The translations under genes were made by a program, and so were the position numbers. This document shows, piece after piece, positions 278-10,683 of a DNA stretch of 39,184 nt. The DNA is from a virus: UHGV virus genome UHGV-0103155; one strand, 5' to 3'. Below the pieces are notes generated by a model that saw only the letters and a program-made list of their open reading frames with translations, did not search any database and was not told where the DNA came from. Position 1 is the stretch's first letter. Every line of letters starts with the position of its first letter.

Positions 278-760
278 CTATCTGGTCAGGGTGTCGTACT
301 GTTTTTCGCAGACTCTTCCGGCTTCGGCTGCCCGGTCAGCATACTCTGCCAGTTGTCTATTTCTCTCGAGAGATTTGCTGAACACGTCGGCAAGCAAAAC
401 TCCGGTGTCTGCGGCTGACGACCCAGCGCCGACAATGGCGTTATAGTGCCTGAGCTGCTCACGGATGGCAACGAGCTGTTGCTGCAACCGGCCAGCGCGA
501 GCGGCAGCATCAAGAGCATCATTGCGCGCCTGGTCGATCCTCTGCTGCGCTTCACGTTCATTGATCGATTTCTCCTGTTCGTAGTGCTGACGAATTCTCT
601 CATCTTCGGTTTTGCGGTCTTCTTTCGCCTGTGCATACCCAGCGTCGTACTGACGACTGCCGTGCACATTCCAGGCAACAACTCCTGATATGACCAGAAC
701 AGCAAGCACCGCCATGATAATCAACTGTTTACGGTATGCTTTTACGAATGACCAGATCAT
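278..760 (-). CDS. Rz-like i-spanin
   Basis: N-terminal TM segment then long charged Gln/Arg/Glu/Ala-rich coiled-coil region; directly downstream of endolysin. Confidence 0.7.
286..561 (-). CDS. Rz1-like o-spanin (lipoprotein) in alternate frame within Rz
   Basis: Alternate-frame ORF with lipoprotein signal …MLPLALAGC and Pro/Ser-rich mature part; start placed at internal Met, uncertain. Confidence 0.5.
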   Translation of the reverse strand: MNVKRSRGSTRRAMMLLMLPLALAGCSNSSLPSVSSSGTITPLSALGRQPQTPEFCLPTCSANLSREIDNWQSMLTGQPKPEESAKNSTTP

Positions 761-2304: not shown

Positions 2305-5061
2305 TTAGCTACTTTCAAGCATTGCAAGACGTGATTCTATTTTTTCGATTCTTCTACGCAAATAAGCTGACTCAAGCCATAAACACTGGTCAGTACGGAT
2401 ACCCCACCTATTTCCAGCATTGCAAACCAGAGTTCGCTCTTCTGTTTCGTATTCTTCTTCCATCTCAATTTCGACGCCATCCACAACTTTAGTGATCATC
2501 CTTACCGCCATCACTGGCGCGTATTTATCATCCCATTCATCGTAACAGAGAAGGCCAAATCTGGTTCCATCAATCCCATGCGCGAGGAAAGTGTCTCTCA
2601 CTTGTTGTGCTATAACACCAAAATGCCAGCGGGCACCATCTCCCTTTTCCCTGACGGCATCAAGCCAGCGAAAAGCTACAATCCTGATATCTCCCCATGC
2701 ATCCAGAATTGCATCACCTTCATAACCACGAGACATATACAAGCTGAGCTCACTTGTACTAATCGGTTCACTTTTTTCTCTACCATCTGATGTGTTTATC
2801 GAACCGTTCGCAGAATAAACCTGTGCCCATCTAAATGATGGTGCACCAAGAGATTTGCTGTTATCAATAATTGGTGAAAAATTACCTTTAATGGCAATAT
2901 TTCCAGAGTCGCCGAATATATTAATAACTGCAGAGTCATCACCATGGTTTTTTACGCTTAAGTTTCTTGATGAAATATTTATATCTTTGTTATATCCACT
3001 AACATTAATCCATCTTTTACCATCAATGTGATACCCGTAAATATTTCCGTCTGATTGTTCGTCAGGTGACTCTCTAAGAACAATAGCATCTGCTCCAGAC
3101 GACCATTGTATTTTTGTATCTGTAGGCCTCCAGTTCTTTATAATGAACGAACCATCAGTAAACTCCGTTTTTATTTGTCTATTGTCTACAAATGCGTCTC
3201 TTGGTTTAAACTCACTTGTGTTAACGCTGCTCTGAAGATCAGAAGCAAAAAATCTAAGATTTCCTGTATAACCCTGAGTCTCGGTCAGGTTATACGCAAT
3301 CATAATTCCATTTTCAAACTCAGATGATGTTATTTTAACATCACGGCAATCACCAAAAATGCAATTTCCTTTATCAAATGTTGTTTGAGCTTTGAATTTA
3401 TCAAACCTTAAATTACGAACAGGGAAACCATCAACCTCTAATGCAAAGGATGCAGGAAGGCCAAAGTATTCTGATGGCTTACCTGATGTATGATCAAGAG
3501 TAGTGGCTACTGTATTCTCAAAAACAGTCCCGCTAAAATTATTACCAATTGACGGAAACCTGATTACACTTATTGTACCTTGTATTTCAGGAGAAATACC
3601 AGATAGTGTGATGTTAGCTCCATCAAATGATGCATCTGAATACGTATATACTGATTCACTGCCAGCAATTTTAAACTGTTTAACTGAAGTTATTCTCATC
3701 GACTTTTTATGTTTAAATGTCACTGAGCTTTCAGTATTACTTACAAGATCAATCTGAGGGCTATTCCTTATCGCGATCCCTGACTGGACATAAACGTTAT
3801 TAAAGTGCGTTTTTTCAGGATTTCCCTTCATTGAAAGGCTCCCGTCATTTTCTGTCAGTAGTAGTCCTTTTACCCTCCAATAGCCGACAATCTGTACGTT
3901 ATCAATAACTGAATCACAGCTATCGTATACATGCAACCCTATATCCCAGTCATCACCCAATGAATAAGAATCAGGGTTATTGTATCCTTCAATACCATTT
4001 TTACTTACCATTATTCTCAGGTTGCGTAACTGTGATGCCCTGTTGATACTAACAGCTACGCTCATGGCTTTTGGTGTAGCAGGAGTAACACCTACAGAAT
4101 CTTCATTTGTAAACTCAGTGAACTTACAAGATATCCCTTCAACAATTTTAACTGGTCTTTCATTAGAGATGTTAAAAAAATATTTGTTTTTTTCTCCATC
4201 ACCAGTAAATACAAGATGGGTTCCTTTACTCCAACTTTTTAATAATCTTTCAGGCGCTGGTCTATATGTATCCCAATAATCAATGCCATCACCAATTAAA
4301 GACACTCCAGGAGGCACATCTATGTTCTTAGAAATCATCCATTTACCTGCAGGTATTCTAACGACACTTGCACCAGAATTTATCGCATTAATTAACCATT
4401 CAGACGCATCAACTTCAAAATTTAATGCAGCATATCTTTGCTCAAACGGAACAAAATCAAGAGCGTTAACGTTATCCCGCATCTTATCCTGGAACGTTCG
4501 GTATACTGCTCCAGAACCATACTGAATAAACCAACCAAAACCACCAACAACTCCGGCGATTGCAGCATCAACATAATTGCGCATTGATCGATTATTTACA
4601 GCATCCTGCTCAAGTGATGGATCTGCAAGGTTAGAAATTTTGTTTTGCTTTGCATCGTAATATTTTGCAAGCAAAGATGGTTTCATCAATGCACGTCTGA
4701 ACCATCCAAAACATTGCTGGATCAGCATCGTCAGGTAGTCAAAGGCATCTTCATGCACTTCGGGGAAAAATTTCCCCTGATTGCGAAGGTCTGTCTCCTG
4801 CACCACATCAAGCACACGATCTATCGTAATTCGCCAGCCAGCAGCAAGCGGAGACGGAAGAACCACTGAACCGCCACTATAAGTGCCCGCCCCAGTTACC
4901 GTATAACCGGTATCCAGAACCAATTCTGTTACGTTCCCGTTCAGGTCAGACACCTGAACAACCAGGTCGGATTTTTTGAAAATACGGAAGGTATACGGAA
5001 ATGATGTCGTAGCGCCGTTACCGGTGTATTCGTTGTGGTCAACTTCGGTTGAGACCGTCAT
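2305..5061 (-). CDS. Tailspike/tail fiber receptor-binding protein with C-terminal intramolecular-chaperone-like domain
   Basis: 918 aa; N-terminal virion-anchoring type segment (…YTGNGATTSFPYTF…), long Ser/Thr/Gly/Asn-rich central region, C-terminal about 160 aa beginning SDGREK. Confidence 0.8.
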   Translation of the reverse strand: MTVSTEVDHNEYTGNGATTSFPYTFRIFKKSDLVVQVSDLNGNVTELVLDTGYTVTGAGTYSGGSVVLPSPLAAGWRITIDRVLDVVQETDLRNQGKFFPEVHEDAFDYLTMLIQQCFGWFRRALMKPSLLAKYYDAKQNKISNLADPSLEQDAVNNRSMRNYVDAAIAGVVGGFGWFIQYGSGAVYRTFQDKMRDNVNALDFVPFEQRYAALNFEVDASEWLINAINSGASVVRIPAGKWMISKNIDVPPGVSLIGDGIDYWDTYRPAPERLLKSWSKGTHLVFTGDGEKNKYFFNISNERPVKIVEGISCKFTEFTNEDSVGVTPATPKAMSVAVSINRASQLRNLRIMVSKNGIEGYNNPDSYSLGDDWDIGLHVYDSCDSVIDNVQIVGYWRVKGLLLTENDGSLSMKGNPEKTHFNNVYVQSGIAIRNSPQIDLVSNTESSVTFKHKKSMRITSVKQFKIAGSESVYTYSDASFDGANITLSGISPEIQGTISVIRFPSIGNNFSGTVFENTVATTLDHTSGKPSEYFGLPASFALEVDGFPVRNLRFDKFKAQTTFDKGNCIFGDCRDVKITSSEFENGIMIAYNLTETQGYTGNLRFFASDLQSSVNTSEFKPRDAFVDNRQIKTEFTDGSFIIKNWRPTDTKIQWSSGADAIVLRESPDEQSDGNIYGYHIDGKRWINVSGYNKDINISSRNLSVKNHGDDSAVINIFGDSGNIAIKGNFSPIIDNSKSLGAPSFRWAQVYSANGSINTSDGREKSEPISTSELSLYMSRGYEGDAILDAWGDIRIVAFRWLDAVREKGDGARWHFGVIAQQVRDTFLAHGIDGTRFGLLCYDEWDDKYAPVMAVRMITKVVDGVEIEMEEEYETEERTLVCNAGNRWGIRTDQCLWLESAYLRRRIEKIESRLAMLESS

Positions 5062-5165
5062 GTTAAATCTCCAGATAGTCGCAGCACCCGTTGCGCCGCA
5101 TATCTGGTTATTCTATTACCTGAAAAACCACATATGGATAGAAAGACTGTAAATACGAATAGATA

Positions 5166-5180
5166 TTACCTTTCGGGTAA
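5166..5180. promoter_or_regulatory. Palindromic operator-like site TTACCTTTCGGGTAA
   Basis: Perfect TTACC-N5-GGTAA upstream of LexA box and small antirepressor-type gene. Confidence 0.45.
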
Positions 5181-5217
5181 TTTGCAAAACGTGCTGGATA
5201 GCAAACAAATTATTTGC

Positions 5218-5237
5218 TACTGTATAAATATACAGTT
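5218..5237. promoter_or_regulatory. LexA box (TACTGTATAAATATACAGTT)
   Basis: CTGT-N8-ACAG with AT-rich spacer, near-consensus SOS box, about 20 bp upstream of the ATG at 5257. Confidence 0.7.
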
Positions 5238-5256
5238 ATTACATGGAGAAGATAAG

Positions 5257-5514
5257 ATGCAGCAGTATCACTATCCACTGGAAGACGGATTTACCGAAAG
5301 GATTCACACGCCGGGAGGCGTCAGGTCACTGGTGGAGGGATCGCACTTGATGAAATTACTCCGGGATCTCGATAAGGATGGATTTAATGTCGATGGCCCA
5401 CTTGCCGAACTGACTGCACTGATTAACTACGTCACCAGCTCACAGATGTCTATGCAGGATCTACAAACACATCTCGACTATTGTGCCGAACAATTACGAA
5501 AACAAACCAGATAA
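5257..5514 (+). CDS. Small antirepressor-type protein (C-terminal domain of the downstream antirepressor alone; Tum/Gifsy-antirepressor-like context)
   Basis: 85 aa from internal ATG; clearly similar to the C-terminus of the 5830-6540 product; LexA box immediately upstream. Confidence 0.55.
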   Translation: MQQYHYPLEDGFTERIHTPGGVRSLVEGSHLMKLLRDLDKDGFNVDGPLAELTALINYVTSSQMSMQDLQTHLDYCAEQLRKQTR

Positions 5515-5680: not shown

Positions 5681-5829
5681 AAGCACAGCTATATCCGAAT
5701 TATGGTGGGCTGGGCAGGGGTCCGAAAGGACGCCGGTACCACTTAGGCCGGTACGCCAACCTTGTCCAGTTCACCACCAGTAATTGGCGTTGCGGTGGTG
5801 ATTAAAATCACTAAGTGGAGATAACCACC

Positions 5830-6540
5830 ATGGCTAATGCTCAAACTGCCATCTTCAAATTTGAATCTGTTAACCCTATCCGTTCCATCATTATCGATGG
5901 CCAACCATGGTTTGTAGCCCAAGACGTTTGTAGTGCGCTGCGTATCCAAAACGTCACCCAAGCACTTGAAAAACTGGATGATGATGAAAGGTCTATGTTC
6001 AACATAGGGCATGAACATCGTGCAATTTTTGACAGCCGAGTAAAAGAGATCAACATCATCTCCGAGTCAGGCCTCTACACACTGATCCTCCGCTGCCGCG
6101 ACGCAGTGACACCAGGCACTATCCCCTACCGCTTTCGTAAATGGGTTACAGGTGAGGTTCTTCCTCAGATCCGCCGCACCGGAAGTTACATTAAAAACTC
6201 GCTCCCGCAGGAAGAACGCATAAAGATGGTTGCCGACCAGGTAGCCAACGCCACGGCGTCAGCAGTAATGCAGGCGATGAAGATAGAGAACAAAACCTAC
6301 AGCGCCCCGCTGAAGCCCGGCTACCGCAGCCTGATTCACTCGCCGTCTGGTGTTCTCGGCCTGACGGAGAACTCACTGCTGATGAATCTGCTGAACCAGT
6401 TACAGGACGACGGGCACGACGTATCGGGCGCGGCGGCGGAGCTGACCACCATGTTCTGCTACATCGTCGGTGTGAGTAAATGCCTGCGTGATATCCAGAC
6501 CCACGCGGAATACATCAACGACAAAGCAGGGTTCTTCTGA
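5830..6540 (+). CDS. Antirepressor, Bro-N domain family with Ant-like C-terminal domain
   Basis: N-terminal region resembles Bro-N/phage antirepressor domains; C-terminal domain paralogous to 5257-5514; GGAG before ATG. Confidence 0.75.
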   Translation: MANAQTAIFKFESVNPIRSIIIDGQPWFVAQDVCSALRIQNVTQALEKLDDDERSMFNIGHEHRAIFDSRVKEINIISESGLYTLILRCRDAVTPGTIPYRFRKWVTGEVLPQIRRTGSYIKNSLPQEERIKMVADQVANATASAVMQAMKIENKTYSAPLKPGYRSLIHSPSGVLGLTENSLLMNLLNQLQDDGHDVSGAAAELTTMFCYIVGVSKCLRDIQTHAEYINDKAGFF

Positions 6541-6610
6541 CAGCGGCGGCACAGGGATGTGCCTTTAAATAATTCTGTACGATTGCAGACTGGGGGTGAA
6601 TAGCGTACTA

Positions 6611-6625
6611 TTACCTCAAGGGTAA
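6611..6625. promoter_or_regulatory. Palindromic operator-like site TTACCTCAAGGGTAA
   Basis: Perfect TTACC-N5-GGTAA about 60 bp upstream of the 6685 start. Confidence 0.45.
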
Positions 6626-6684
6626 GAAAGCATTTTTAATCTTCCCTTCAAAACGCGTCCTGTAGCCAAACATGGGAGGACGAA

Positions 6685-7317
6685 ATGAGAACAAATACAA
6701 CAAGAAAAGCGATGCCATACATTATCCCAGAAGCAGATTTCGATAGAAAACTGAACATGTCTGAGAAGAACACTAGTCACACCGAAAGCTACTTAGCGAA
6801 AGGTGTGGTTGATTTCGTTCTTCCGGGATTCACAACACCTTATGGTTATCGCCTTGTAAAATCTTGTAATGGCGATCATTACAGAATGATTACTACCAGC
6901 GATACTCCAGAAACGGTGTATGCGGTTAAGTTAATCTTTCGGGAAGATATCGTCGAAGCCAAAAGAACATGTACGCAGATCATGGTATGGCGTACGCCTA
7001 ATGTTATTCATGACCGTGCTGTTCATGGTTTGCCTCAGATTTTTTTTCAGTTCTTCCTAGAGCAATATGCGATCGTTGTATCTGATGAGCAACAAACAAT
7101 CGATGGGAGAAGATTCTGGGAAAGAATGATTTCTTGGGCTATAAACACCCCAGGATATAATGTATACGTTTCAGATGGCTCTGAAGAAGATAGACCTCTT
7201 AGCTTCATGACATCATGGGATGATTTCTATAGCCAGTGGGCTGATTTCTGTTGGGGCAGTGATAAAGATGTGCATACCCACAGACTACTGGTTATAAGCA
7301 AAGATAAACTGCATTAA
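6685..7317 (+). CDS. Hypothetical protein, AT-rich single-gene cargo (moron)
   Basis: 210-aa ORF with strong GGAGGA RBS, own upstream operator-like site and downstream terminator; Trp/Phe/Tyr-rich; no family recognised. Confidence 0.6.
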   Translation: MRTNTTRKAMPYIIPEADFDRKLNMSEKNTSHTESYLAKGVVDFVLPGFTTPYGYRLVKSCNGDHYRMITTSDTPETVYAVKLIFREDIVEAKRTCTQIMVWRTPNVIHDRAVHGLPQIFFQFFLEQYAIVVSDEQQTIDGRRFWERMISWAINTPGYNVYVSDGSEEDRPLSFMTSWDDFYSQWADFCWGSDKDVHTHRLLVISKDKLH

Positions 7318-7320
7318 TAG

Positions 7321-7345
7321 AAGCCCGCAGCGCGGGCTTTTTTGT
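7321..7345 (+). terminator. Rho-independent terminator
   Basis: Stem AGCCCGC/GCGGGCT then TTTTTTG. Confidence 0.6.
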
Positions 7346-7415
7346 GGACGAAACAAAAGTCAGTGCTACACTCATTGACGCCACATTGAGGTGGCTTATA
7401 GATGGAAATTTCACA

Positions 7416-7577
7416 ATGAAAAAAGCATTTGCTGCACTGTTCGTTTTGTTGTCTCTGGTAGCTTCAACTCAGGCCTTTGCCGGTCGTTGTCAGCACGACA
7501 GCGACACTGCTGCTGACGGCTCCCGCTGCGGTGGGCGTTCTGCGGATTCCCGCCCGGGTGGCGGTGGCATTCGTTAA
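7416..7577 (+). CDS. Small secreted peptide (53 aa, signal peptide plus about 31-aa Gly/Ser/Asp-rich mature part with 2 Cys)
   Basis: Internal ATG (MKKAFAALFVLLSLVASTQAFA…) with classical signal peptide; possible promoter TTGACG upstream; small-ORF call is tentative. Confidence 0.35.
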   Translation: MKKAFAALFVLLSLVASTQAFAGRCQHDSDTAADGSRCGGRSADSRPGGGGIR

Positions 7578-7579
7578 AA

Positions 7580-7598
7580 ACAAGGCCGCGAAAGCGGC
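7580..7598 (-). terminator. Hairpin GGCCGC-GAAA-GCGGCC with T-run on minus strand
   Basis: Perfect 6-bp GC stem; T-rich tract follows in minus-strand orientation, downstream of lipoprotein gene. Confidence 0.5.
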
Positions 7599-7600
7599 CT

Positions 7601-7612
7601 GTGACATGTCAC
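7601..7612. promoter_or_regulatory. 12-bp perfect palindrome GTGACATGTCAC (copy 1 of 3)
   Basis: Exact sequence also at about 25278 and 27542; sits where plus-strand cargo genes converge on the minus-strand lipoprotein gene end. Confidence 0.5.
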
Positions 7613-7989
7613 GCAACGCAATTATTACCGCGCCATGTAACATTTTTAATAATCTTATCAGCACCAAACTCAACGTAAACAGAGCAACTGAAATGGAGTG
7701 TATAACCGCCATCAGTTGTTGCGTATGTGTTTGAATATATAGTATTACCAATTAGATTAGACGTAGTATTATACGTTGTGGTTTGTGGTACGTTATAACT
7801 ACCAGAGCTTGAGTAAACATACACTCTGTTTCCATCTGGAGATGTAAGCTCTCCCTGAGGATACCCCCACTGCTGAACCATTGCGTCTATACTCTGCCCG
7901 CGCCACGTAAGCATATTTCTTTCAAACTGTGCAGCTGACTGGCATCCAACGAGAAGCATAAATCCAAAAATCAAAAATACTTTTCTCAT
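7609..7989 (-). CDS. Lipoprotein, function unknown (possible surface-modifying or superinfection-exclusion cargo)
   Basis: Signal peptide with lipobox LLVGC (MRKVFLIFGFMLLVGC…); Thr/Ser/Asn/Tyr-rich mature region; AT-rich gene. Confidence 0.6.
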   Translation of the reverse strand: MRKVFLIFGFMLLVGCQSAAQFERNMLTWRGQSIDAMVQQWGYPQGELTSPDGNRVYVYSSSGSYNVPQTTTYNTTSNLIGNTIYSNTYATTDGGYTLHFSCSVYVEFGADKIIKNVTWRGNNCVA

Positions 7990-8208
7990 AATTACCCCTA
8001 TCATGGAAAAACAGCACCAATCCACAAATTAACTAGTTATTTTATTATTCTTCCGAACAATACAATTCCGAATACTACAAAGCCGAACCATGCCGCTGCA
8101 CGCAACAGAGATTCCAATTGAAACCCATTTTTATCAAAATGTATGAATAGCATAAAAACGCTGCACATATTAGTACAATAAAAGTTATTTGAACCATCAT
8201 ATCTCCTT

Positions 8209-10683
8209 TTATTGCGGAGTGACATCCTGTGGTCGCCACCAGTATGTCTGGTTAAACTCTTTCTTCGAACGTTGCTCCATTTTACGTAAATAGCCTGGTG
8301 AAAAATACTCCTGCATCTGGTTAAAGATCATGTGATCGAGAGCCGCCTTCAAGTACCAGAGATTCGCACCAGGCATCAAACCTTTCCCCAGCTTCACCAG
8401 ATCACCACCAGTCTGCTCACTCTTCCCTTCCACAGCATTTAACGGTATGCCCTGAGCAATCTTCACTACGTCATCAACCAGACCAGCTACCGGGCCAAGC
8501 ATCGACGCCAGCGCGCCGCTTCCGTACCTAGTGTGATCTGACAATAAAAAGTCACCGTAAAGGCCAAGACCACCACCTTTCAGTAGAGCACCAAGCCAGA
8601 ATTTTGCGGCATCTTCTCCTGTCATCTCTCGAGGATTACGACCAGACGCAAGGTCGTTAAGTTGCTGCGACAAAGCGCCAAGAATGGTCGTACTGGCAAT
8701 AAACGTCGCAATATATGCCGCACGCCCACCAGCAGACGGCATACCCATAGCGCGTGACCAGTGACGCATAACAACCGAGATAGGGAACGATTTAAACAGG
8801 AAAACACTTCTCGTTAATTCACCTTTCCATGTTCCACGCTGAATACCAGAACCGGTTATCAGTTGCTCACGTGCTCCCGGTGTAATAACAGCCATATCAA
8901 CTTCTTCAGTTACGGCACCGAGCAGTTTACGCATTGCCTCAAATTTCACGCGTTCAGGCTCACCAAGATGTTTAACTGCTGAATCAGGGATACGCATAAT
9001 GCTTTCCGGTGTCAGCATCATATTATTACCGTTCCCCCAGTCCTCCTGTTTCGCCAGCTTCCATACGCTCCAGTCTGTGTCAGTAATCCCTTTGCTTTTC
9101 AGGATACGAAAATCAGAGTCATCGAGGCTACGAAGGTCTGGTGTCCGTGACACTACTTCTCCCAGGCTTCCCATCATGGTTACGCCATAGGCGCGCTTGT
9201 GCGCATCTGACCATGCTGTAAGCCCACTGGCACGCATTACCGCCGTTGCCGCCCAACGAGACACTGACGGCCCCATATTATCCATCGCCCAGCGGTTAAC
9301 GCTGCCAAGTAGAGATTCCATCGCCAGACCAGCGCGGCGCGCCCGCGCAAGTTCTGTACGGTTCGTTGGGTCCATAGCTTCAAGCTGGTTGCGGAATAAC
9401 TGGTTCATTGGAAGGTTGGTAACCTTCGCAGACAGATACATGGTTCCAAGATCAGAGAACGATGACAGCAACGCGGATCCGAGTCTGCTGGCAACCAGCC
9501 AGTTGCGGATATTGTCAGACCATCGCGCGATGTGCGGATTCGCTACAGGCTGTGTCTTTCCGGAAATAAAGTTGTACAGATTCTCTGTGTTGTTCGCCAG
9601 CCGCTCGACTTTACCGGTTTTACTCGGGTTAGCTGTTGCCGTTTCTGCCTTCACCTGATCAAGAAGAGAGCGGAAAACATGATCGGGGTTTGGGCCATAT
9701 GTTTCCACCAGTGCAATATCTTTACTGATACCTTCCAGGTGACCGACCATGATTTCCCATAGAGAGCGATCGCCATAAAGTTGCTGATATTGCAGATAGG
9801 AATCTGCATCTTTGAAATGTATCTGTCGTGATGCATTACCACGGTTAGCACGTGCGCCGGAAATTCGCATTCCGGTATCAGTAAGCTTATTCAGCCCACC
9901 AGTAGCGATCGTGTTATAAGCCTCTCCAAGAAATGAAGACAACTCGGCATCGTTCATCAGTTGTCCATCGGCTCGGATATAATATTTGCGATCCAGCTTA
10001 CCTATAACATCGCTAACCCACTTATCCTTTGATACTGCCCCAACCTTTTCCATAGAATGATGTTGAGGGATCCCCCAGTTTTCGAGATAGCCAATGTCCC
10101 CACCAGCATCATTAAACCGGCGGCGCAGCAGCTCTGTAACTTCTCTCCACGCCTTAGCACCGTTTCTTGCTTTAGCATTGCCAGTATTTTGCCCCCGCAT
10201 TTCATATACCAGGTCACGTACGCCCGCTTCATCTTCAAACAGACCAAAAAAGCGAGGATCAACTGCTTCGAATGCCTCCTGCAATTGACTCAATGCATAA
10301 TCACGGGTGGCTTTTGTTCTGGATTCAACAGAGAGGAAATTAGATTTACCGTCTGCATTAAAAGCTATAGTACGGTTAAGAGCGCCAAGTTTCCCATCAG
10401 CCCCTTGATAGCTATTGATAAATTTATCCAATCTCTGACGCGCGGCTATAGTGAGAGCCACACGACGTTTCTTTAATGCCGCTTCTCGCTGTAATTCTTC
10501 AGATGCCAATTGTGCTGCTCGATATAGCCGCTCTGATTCGGAAAGTTGTCGCCACGATATAGGGTCATCACGAGCAATGGAGCGCATATTTCGATAAATG
10601 CGGTCTTCAATGTTCTGTATTTCTCGCGCCGTTAACGTGCGCTGCGCCGCCTGCTGGACCGCTTGTATACATTCCTGTCTCAT
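8209..10683 (-). CDS. Large internal virion / DNA-ejection protein
   Basis: 824 aa, one of three consecutive large ORFs between tail-tube genes and tailspike, position equivalent to T7 gp15/gp16 core proteins. Confidence 0.55.
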   Translation of the reverse strand: MRQECIQAVQQAAQRTLTAREIQNIEDRIYRNMRSIARDDPISWRQLSESERLYRAAQLASEELQREAALKKRRVALTIAARQRLDKFINSYQGADGKLGALNRTIAFNADGKSNFLSVESRTKATRDYALSQLQEAFEAVDPRFFGLFEDEAGVRDLVYEMRGQNTGNAKARNGAKAWREVTELLRRRFNDAGGDIGYLENWGIPQHHSMEKVGAVSKDKWVSDVIGKLDRKYYIRADGQLMNDAELSSFLGEAYNTIATGGLNKLTDTGMRISGARANRGNASRQIHFKDADSYLQYQQLYGDRSLWEIMVGHLEGISKDIALVETYGPNPDHVFRSLLDQVKAETATANPSKTGKVERLANNTENLYNFISGKTQPVANPHIARWSDNIRNWLVASRLGSALLSSFSDLGTMYLSAKVTNLPMNQLFRNQLEAMDPTNRTELARARRAGLAMESLLGSVNRWAMDNMGPSVSRWAATAVMRASGLTAWSDAHKRAYGVTMMGSLGEVVSRTPDLRSLDDSDFRILKSKGITDTDWSVWKLAKQEDWGNGNNMMLTPESIMRIPDSAVKHLGEPERVKFEAMRKLLGAVTEEVDMAVITPGAREQLITGSGIQRGTWKGELTRSVFLFKSFPISVVMRHWSRAMGMPSAGGRAAYIATFIASTTILGALSQQLNDLASGRNPREMTGEDAAKFWLGALLKGGGLGLYGDFLLSDHTRYGSGALASMLGPVAGLVDDVVKIAQGIPLNAVEGKSEQTGGDLVKLGKGLMPGANLWYLKAALDHMIFNQMQEYFSPGYLRKMEQRSKKEFNQTYWWRPQDVTPQ

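Follow-up and report, generated by a model that had tools for sequence, protein, structure and literature searches.

A predicted lipoprotein and a small secreted peptide form separate cassettes beside the ejection genes of an epsilon15-like prophage, with a possible role in superinfection exclusion

Introduction

Which purpose is served by two small genes, each coding for a protein directed to the cell envelope, that lie between the ejection genes and the antirepressor region of an epsilon15-like prophage? The question arises from the virus genome UHGV-0103155, a stretch of 39,184 nucleotides analyzed here as a whole (the window), in which an open reading frame (ORF) for a lipoprotein (7609-7989, minus strand) and another for a 53-amino acid (aa) peptide (7416-7577, plus strand) converge on each other. 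A first-pass annotation of the sequence had placed both ORFs between ejection genes and an antirepressor cluster, and this was correct, internal-virion genes being found on one side and a BRO-N antirepressor on the other. To our knowledge, the crossing of the envelope by short-tailed phages and the ways in which it is blocked are understood at the molecular level for very few systems, SieA of phage P22 being the main example, and we know of no outer-membrane or periplasmic blocker for epsilon15-like phages. The answer that we favour, tentatively and as something possible rather than probable, is that the genes are two separate cargo cassettes in a hypervariable slot, that the lipoprotein excludes superinfecting relatives and that the peptide is a mobile moron with an envelope target.

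Results and discussion

By gene order and homology the window can be assigned to a Uetakevirus prophage of the epsilon15/phiV10 group. Over positions 7300-8260 identity is 100% with the CE10 chromosome (E. coli O7:K1) and with several other complete E. coli genomes, 99.9% with avian pathogenic E. coli (APEC) O1, and 99.4-99.7% with two Uetakevirus phages, vB_EcoP_ZX5 and Phi05_1387.

The ORF at 7609-7989 encodes a 126-aa predicted outer-membrane lipoprotein precursor (translation, homologues, AlphaFold2 model and RefSeq), beginning with MRKVFLIFGFMLLVGC and continuing with QSAAQ; it is identical to a coding sequence in the RefSeq record of CE10, whose product WP_157905739.1 is called hypothetical, and falls in phrog_3716 of PHROGs, function not assigned. 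At the N-terminus a basic n-region (MRK) is followed by a hydrophobic core of 11 residues and by the lipobox L-V-G-C, which ends in Cys16 and fits the pattern [LVI][ASTVI][GAS]C; the signal MRK-VFLIFGFMLLV-GC is thus that of a lipoprotein by sequence, and a predicted substrate of Lgt, LspA and Lnt. Residue +2 is Gln, with Gln or Ala in the homologues. According to the Lol-avoidance rule, the established basis for predicting sorting from this position, Asp at +2 means avoidance, and the Gln found here predicts sorting of the lipoprotein to the outer membrane. Thr, Ser, Asn and Tyr account for 39% of the mature protein and for 63% of residues 60-100, against 21% in the long ORFs of the window, so that the lipobox and the Thr/Ser/Asn/Tyr-rich mature domain described in the first-pass annotation are both confirmed. 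The start codon at 7989 (ATG, preceded by GGGG) agrees with the start of the homologues, and a GTG at 8025, which would give 138 aa, is rejected as an over-extension.

A word-indexed search returned 37 close homologues, all of them in Enterobacteriaceae, while a full profile search extended the family to 3705 clusters (50% identity) with E <= 0.001 and 1089 with E <= 1e-10. The lipobox Cys is conserved in at least 90% of the aligned members, and the family shares the motifs WGYP (W-G-Y-P), GN.VY.Y (G-N-x-V-Y-x-Y) and GNNC (G-N-N-C) along with Cys102 and Cys124, a pair that presumably forms a disulfide. Library scans found no Pfam, NCBIfam or PADLOC family for the lipoprotein; when 40 diverse members were compared with Pfam no domain family was recovered either, the sole family-relevant match being the generic lipid-attachment motif LPAM_1, and literature searches found no paper on this family or on that of the peptide. 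Family loci were retrieved with another alignment, the broad one being too diverse for that purpose. The family also extends beyond phages, to Planctomycetota, Nitrospirota, Campylobacterota, alphaproteobacteria and other groups, where its members have unrelated genes around them. Two gut alphaproteobacterial metagenome-assembled genomes (loci L026 and L028, ~6001-8153) hold a chromosomal member directly upstream of DivIC/FtsB-like and M23 peptidase genes, which hints at a link of the family to the septal peptidoglycan machinery.

The structure predicted by AlphaFold2 from the family alignment (mean predicted local distance difference test score, pLDDT, 84) has a sheet of long hairpins against which two helices pack. 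Structure comparison gave as relatives the extracellular SCP-domain protein 4ifa (score 9.4), YjgB / DUF4309 (7.5), the putative beta-lactamase inhibitor protein 3d4e (7.5), BamE (6.7), OsmE (6.6) and the immunity protein BtiO of a type VI secretion system (T6SS; 6.6). Using Foldseek, BamE chains headed the PDB ranking and phage SmpA/OmlA lipoproteins were matched in BFVD; moreover, a profile search of PDB chains matched the family profile to residues 36-110 of 4h0a by sequence (E = 3.9e-5). The alpha-alpha-beta3-type fold of BamE is therefore present in the model, as is the similarity, both structural and by remote sequence, to BLIP-like, DUF4309 and SCP N-terminal domains, and we take the lipoprotein to be a BamE/BLIP-like small domain by predicted fold. 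Such folds serve mostly in protein binding or inhibition. The distance to these relatives is considerable: identity to the BamE/OsmE/BLIP-like domains (SmpA_OmlA, DUF4309 and the N-terminal domains of the SCP-family proteins 4ifa and 4h0a) is 10-20%, neither the SmpA_OmlA model (PF04355) nor any other Pfam model is matched, and the lipoprotein differs in its far longer, Thr/Ser/Asn/Tyr-rich beta-hairpins, its conserved Cys102-Cys124 pair and its C-terminal GNNC. No evidence ties it to the BAM complex.

In epsilon15-like phages the lipoprotein gene turns up again and again joined to the ejection module; the window and more than 30 related loci have it behind the gene of an 824-aa internal virion protein. 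In Salmonella prophages, whose version of the protein appears in 930 blocks of the assembly collection, the gene starts 10 nt past the stop of the 824-aa homologue, and in L011 there is a 4-nt overlap with the gene before it. Klebsiella phages carry a 79% identical lipoprotein after a structural protein that is only 28% identical to the 824-aa protein, and in three viral contigs (L067-L069) the gene is found between the homologues of the 600-aa and 824-aa genes. The Burkholderia phage vB_E332 has a family member with lipobox LIGC in the same slot, in convergent orientation (opposite strand). In position this slot matches the sieA locus of P22, found immediately past the ejection-protein genes and ahead of the antirepressor region and the tailspike.

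The content of the slot is highly variable. The 824-aa gene type occurs in about 312 of 5426 complete E. coli genomes, and 34 of these (34/5426 overall) carry the lipoprotein cassette, in copies that are at least 99% identical; about 205 E. coli genomes have instead an alternative cassette coding for a 57-aa two-helix and a 98-aa four-helix membrane protein, while phiV10 has a 46-aa two-helix protein there. The cassettes encode mutually exclusive envelope proteins, and the slot appears to behave as a diversifying, swap-prone locus. The lipoprotein gene has 40% G+C, compared with 49% for the phage; variable presence among relatives and atypical composition, as expected for morons, are seen for it and for the peptide gene alike. 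At the end of the cassette lies a 12-bp palindrome, GTGACATGTCAC (7601-7612; sequence and junction comparison), which holds the stop codon TGA of the lipoprotein gene, and the palindrome noted earlier at this junction is thus real. Unrelated cassette genes, for the lipoprotein and for the 98-aa membrane protein, end in this same GTGACATGTCAC with its TGA as their stop (also in L076, L009 and L012). All E. coli cassettes examined continue from it into the same GGCCGC-GAAA-GCGGCC hairpin, while Salmonella and Enterobacter copies keep the junction motif and have downstream hairpins of their own. From this comparison GTGACATGTCAC looks like a conserved recombination junction for cassette exchange. 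A LexA box was considered for the palindrome and rejected by inspection, the sequence being CTG-N10-CGC, not CAG.

In Enterobacter quasihormaechei (L012, 5560-6420, next to guaA) an intact lipoprotein gene with ribosome-binding site and terminator is accompanied by a single other phage remnant, a decayed 3' fragment of an ejection gene, the rest of the epsilon15-like prophage having been lost. Such a copy suggests that the gene was kept for a benefit to the host.

The first-pass annotation had named Cor, Llp and SieA as precedents for superinfection exclusion by a lipoprotein in this position; judged by the searches described here these are analogies, not relatives. The likeness is in kind and place: T5 Llp, Cor (phi80/N15/HK022), Rtp45 and the Lpp of mEpimmI are, like the present protein as predicted, small lipoproteins of the inner leaflet of the outer membrane, and are likewise encoded inside or at the edge of a structural cluster (PMC11893012, PMC9586334, PMC12685063); an entry-blocking role is plausible. 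Exclusion lipoprotein genes have been reported within structural clusters (PMC11893012), for T5 Llp and Rtp45 the site of action is the periplasmic side of the outer membrane (PMC9586334, PMC12685063), and P22 SieA blocks DNA delivery by acting on ejection proteins (PMC10883804). Unlike Cor, Llp and Rtp45, the lipoprotein has ~110 mature residues in a BamE/BLIP-like fold and is linked to ejection-protein genes, not to a receptor-binding protein gene, in an O-antigen- or capsule-specific podovirus without a known protein receptor. It shares with SieA the location directly after ejection-protein genes; however, SieA is a polytopic inner-membrane protein, whereas the lipoprotein has no membrane helix beyond its signal peptide, is predicted to be soluble and beta-rich, and shows no homology to it. 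The alternative slot cassettes (46-aa, 57-aa and 98-118-aa membrane proteins) are closer in kind to SieA. A role as o-spanin was discarded, the spanin pair being encoded in the lysis cassette 7 kb away.

Taken together, superinfection exclusion is the best-supported function that we can infer for the lipoprotein, plausible and somewhat strengthened by the synteny and the slot polymorphism. The case for it is circumstantial, and consists of the sieA-like position, the mutually exclusive cassettes, the linkage to ejection genes in diverged phages and the intact copy in a decayed prophage.

A number of observations weigh against it. Searches of Pfam, NCBIfam, PHROGs, PADLOC, structures and PDB profiles found no Cor, Llp, Rtp45, Bor, TraT or SieA relative of the lipoprotein, and no exclusion phenotype is on record for any member of its family or of the peptide family. 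Most members of the lipoprotein family are chromosomal, in unrelated bacteria and with varied neighbours, so the ancestral function was not anti-phage; we conclude from this distribution that an old chromosomal lipoprotein family was recruited by epsilon15-like phages and kept near their ejection genes. The Klebsiella proteins, 79% identical for the lipoprotein and 28% for the structural protein before it, argue against a specific fit to the ejection protein, and since the lipoprotein is so highly conserved against very divergent 824-aa proteins, a host target is favoured. Regarding expression, the terminator scan found no terminator between the 824-aa and lipoprotein genes and the automatic promoter scan no promoter-like site above shuffled background upstream of the latter; because of these two results the lipoprotein gene is likely co-transcribed with the late operon. 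For the peptide, structure prediction returned the signal helix only, at low confidence (pLDDT 63).

Late transcription leads to the main rival of exclusion by lysogens, which we regard as unlikely, though less so than the other alternatives: the lipoprotein would be a lytic-cycle accessory of the ejection module, made late and working as a periplasmic immunity-type inhibitor or chaperone-like partner. It might neutralise the peptidoglycan-degrading or membrane-active ejection proteins of attacking phages, or it might stop progeny from ejecting into debris as T5 Llp does. Such a role would fit a gene that stands on the late-operon strand with no terminator before it, separated from the preceding gene by 10 nt in Salmonella or overlapping it in L011, and embedded between two ejection genes in L067-L069; the ejection module includes a transglycosylase-type internal protein, and the relatives by fold include enzyme inhibitors and a T6SS immunity protein. 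Nevertheless, late expression is impossible in the decayed Enterobacter prophage where the gene is intact, the Burkholderia phage has it on the opposite strand, most E. coli relatives do without it, and its neighbours are the 824- and 600-aa genes, not the 837-aa gene that bears the transglycosylase.

Ranking third, and in our view improbable, is a lysogenic conversion unrelated to phages. The lipoprotein, perhaps with the peptide, would then alter the host envelope as Bor, OsmE or BamE-like lipoproteins do, with effects on tolerance of stress, on resistance to serum or antimicrobials or on the biogenesis of the outer membrane, to the benefit of extraintestinal E. coli hosts. The mainly chromosomal and widespread family, the fold in common with BamE and OsmE, the K1 meningitis and avian pathogenic strains among the hosts, the gut alphaproteobacterial member beside DivIC-like and M23 peptidase genes, and the presence of the peptide in ~8% of E. 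coli genomes and across phage types all speak for it. It leaves unexplained, however, why linkage to ejection genes recurs in diverged phages; moreover, in other prophages small inner-membrane proteins occupy the slot instead, the kind of alternation that exclusion loci show, and the lipoprotein is found in only 34/5426 E. coli genomes.

The second ORF, at 7416-7577 on the plus strand, encodes a 53-aa secreted or N-terminally anchored small protein (translation, homologues and codon comparison), MKKAFAALFVLLSLVASTQAFA followed by GRCQHDSDTAADGSRCGGRSADSRPGGGGIR, and the proposed signal-peptide-bearing Cys peptide has turned out to be a real gene. It corresponds to WP_000708858.1, named 'transmembrane anchored protein', and to phrog_14503 and phrog_3117. 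The signal comprises residues 1-22 (MKK, then AFAALFVLLSLVA, then STQ-A-F-A before a Gly) and is of the Sec/signal peptidase I type, with small residues at -3 and -1; the A-x-A cleavage motif is kept in 20 of 21 aligned homologues. The mature part has 31 aa and two Cys, with a spacing of 12 residues. Homologues number 57 across Enterobacterales, from Escherichia, Shigella, Klebsiella, Citrobacter, Cronobacter, Salmonella, Pectobacterium and Dickeya, and mostly bear the same 'transmembrane anchored protein' name; in their alignment the signal drifts, and C-Q-H-D-x-D-T-A-A-D-G-S-R-C-G-G-R-S-A-D-S-R-P-G-G is near-invariant. A crude ratio of non-synonymous to synonymous changes (dN/dS), from ten distinct DNA versions, was 0.05 for the mature part, where codons vary mostly synonymously, and 0.17 for the signal. 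Pfam, NCBIfam and PADLOC gave no usable match to the peptide, only a sub-threshold one to NCBIfam HxsA3 (E = 0.07). Judged by their sequences, both ORFs hold up as genuine envelope-directed proteins. A 77-aa version of the peptide starting from GTG 7344 is unlikely, this codon falling within the T-run of the upstream terminator. An arbitrium-like signalling peptide was also dismissed: no receptor gene travels with the cassette, and the invariant part is a Cys loop and not a lineage-specific tail.

The peptide cassette is present in 422/5426 E. coli genomes (~8%), and occurs in Uetakevirus prophages with other slot contents; TL-2011b, a P22-like phage, has it beside ant/arc, and a myovirus prophage carries it at its end. 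Its gene has 57% G+C, against 49% for the phage. Like phage morons, the cassette is bracketed by a terminator and a hairpin, is atypical in G+C, is present or absent among near-identical prophages and moves between phage types; it differs from autonomous morons in that its promoter is only deduced, and the lipoprotein gene differs in seeming to rely on read-through from the late operon.

A single two-part system made up of lipoprotein and peptide, in which the peptide might for example modulate the lipoprotein or be bound by it, is very unlikely and already largely refuted by their distribution. Both products are directed to the periplasm, 29 E. coli genomes share with the window the adjacent, convergent arrangement of the genes, and the diverged viral contig L059 carries the two; yet the peptide occurs without the lipoprotein in ~390 E. 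coli genomes, TL-2011b, phiv142-3, H10407 and the myovirus prophage, and the lipoprotein without the peptide in Salmonella and Klebsiella prophages, L047 and L049. Since each gene is found without the other in many genomes and phages, the two are therefore best read as independent cassettes, neighbours here by chance. Hardly credible at all is that one or both are non-functional remnants or chance ORFs, as their hypothetical annotations, the lack of a Pfam match and the frameshifted look of a neighbouring small membrane ORF might suggest, against thousands of homologues with conserved motifs and Cys, a confident predicted lipoprotein fold, strong purifying selection on the peptide and intact ribosome-binding sites and terminators.

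Under the exclusion of superinfecting relatives that we prefer, the slot lies between the internal-virion (ejection) operon and the antirepressor/tailspike region of an epsilon15/phiV10-like prophage, and the lipoprotein, anchored in the outer membrane, would present a compact, disulfide-stabilised BamE/BLIP-like domain to the periplasm. This domain would bind a conserved envelope component that incoming phages need for their trans-envelope DNA conduit, or the conduit itself, and would thereby exclude epsilon15-like relatives at the step of envelope crossing. With expression from the late operon it might also guard infected cells and spare progeny a wasteful ejection into debris. The peptide signal would be cleaved after AFA, releasing the invariant 31-aa Cys-loop peptide into the periplasm, where it would most likely bind another conserved envelope target. 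The reality of the genes, their targeting signals, predicted fold, distribution, synteny and selection come directly from the analysis; the localisation, the binding partners and the exclusion are what we infer from these features. A more specific version, in which the lipoprotein is an immunity-like outer-membrane protein targeting the podovirus ejectosome (internal virion proteins or their host dock) and so an outer-membrane counterpart of SieA, is speculative, and we give it little credence.

The two genes share a seven-pair G+C-rich hairpin, AGGCCGC-GAAA-GCGGCCT (7583-7600, listed on the minus strand; terminator scan and folding), that had been described as a bidirectional terminator. On the minus strand it is followed by the U-run UUGUUUUU, while the plus strand has no U-run; by sequence it serves the lipoprotein gene as a canonical intrinsic terminator and offers the peptide gene no more than a bare hairpin, so that the terminator stands and its bidirectionality does not. 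Upstream of the peptide gene lies the intrinsic terminator of a 210-aa gene, AAGCCCGC-AGC-GCGGGCTT plus T6 (7321-7345, plus strand), whose folding is unusually stable (z = -3.55; 0/200 shuffles folded as well). Because this strong terminator precedes it and insulates it from upstream transcription, the peptide gene needs a promoter of its own, and a candidate promoter and leader were read by us from the sequence and alignment at 7345-7402 (plus strand): TGGACG (7345-7350) and TACACT (7367-7372) are 16 nt apart and partly conserved in Klebsiella versions (TGGAYG, TAcAcT), whereas an alternative pair, TTGACG (7375-7380) and TATAGA (7397-7402), also 16 nt apart, is better-looking but not conserved. 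A hairpin GCCAC-N6-GTGGC at 7380-7395 is conserved between the E. coli and Klebsiella versions and may be a leader structure. The automatic promoter scan found nothing above background for either gene and called neither candidate pair, and an Rfam search over 6500-8700 gave no credible match.

The spacer between the lipoprotein and 824-aa genes (220 bp, 34% G+C) is A+T-rich and holds two overlapping small ORFs (8037-8225, minus strand; from the ORF list and sequence reading, not annotated in RefSeq). A 41-aa ORF (8075-8200, minus strand) has a strong AAGGAG ribosome-binding site directly past the 824-aa stop and one transmembrane helix, and a 62-aa ORF (8037-8225, minus strand) has a single C-terminal transmembrane helix. 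Lengthening an A5 run by a single A would join the two, giving a 54-aa two-helix membrane protein that resembles the slot proteins of phiV10 and H10407; the pair may be a frameshifted gene or relic. When the hypothetical fused protein was searched against phages with tblastn, no intact homologue came up, which leaves the one-gene origin a conjecture, and the small ORFs had no usable Pfam, NCBIfam or PADLOC match.

On the minus strand the order of genes leading to the lipoprotein region starts with a tail protein. Behind it come a pair of small internal virion proteins, of which one belongs to the T7 gp14 family, then an 837-aa internal protein whose PHROG matches are of the transglycosylase/endolysin type, and after it a 600-aa protein and the 824-aa 'virion structural protein' (8209-10683, minus strand; phrog_684, by translation and PHROGs), final gene of the late structural operon. 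Past the cargo region the plus strand encodes the 210-aa protein (6685-7317; phrog_1349, function not assigned, by PHROGs and RefSeq), variable cargo upstream of the peptide cassette, and the BRO-N antirepressor (5815-6540; Pfam/PHROGs matches), after which the tailspike and lysis cassette follow on the minus strand. The 210-aa gene has 41% G+C and is replaced in relatives by a DUF2335 protein, a YafO-family toxin or other small ORFs, and is another swappable cargo gene. Upstream of the antirepressor, a 126-aa ORF (5134-5514, plus strand) has a C-terminal domain in common with it, phrog_450 and phrog_15539 matching both; RefSeq annotates only a shorter 85-aa version of this ORF in CE10.

The tailspike (2305-5061, minus strand) matched the endosialidase catalytic domain weakly and below threshold (E = 0.0027) and the Peptidase_S74 intramolecular chaperone domain clearly, and its CE10 version is annotated as endosialidase. 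Based on these matches the prophage looks K1-capsule-specific, epsilon15-like and resident in K1 strains (CE10, APEC O1). In the lysis cassette, a candidate o-spanin lipoprotein with lipobox LAGC (286-705, minus strand) lies within the DUF2514 i-spanin gene (278-760) in another reading frame; the spanins of epsilon15 and phiV10 have been classified (PMC6139136).

Conclusions

Should both genes turn out to have no effect on phages or the envelope, the region would be ordinary cargo. Were the lipoprotein to target the ejectosome, it would found the function of a BamE/BLIP-fold family of more than 3000 clusters, and its repeated capture beside or between ejection genes in Enterobacterales, Burkholderia and others would reflect an effector-immunity-like coupling. 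The peptide is among the commoner unexplained prophage genes of E. coli, with ~8% of complete genomes. The lipoprotein is a concrete and cheaply testable candidate blocker and a first functional handle on a large unannotated family, and the polymorphic slot offers a natural experiment on the specificity of exclusion in prophages of pathogenic E. coli (K1, APEC), Salmonella and Klebsiella, of relevance to host range in phage therapy.

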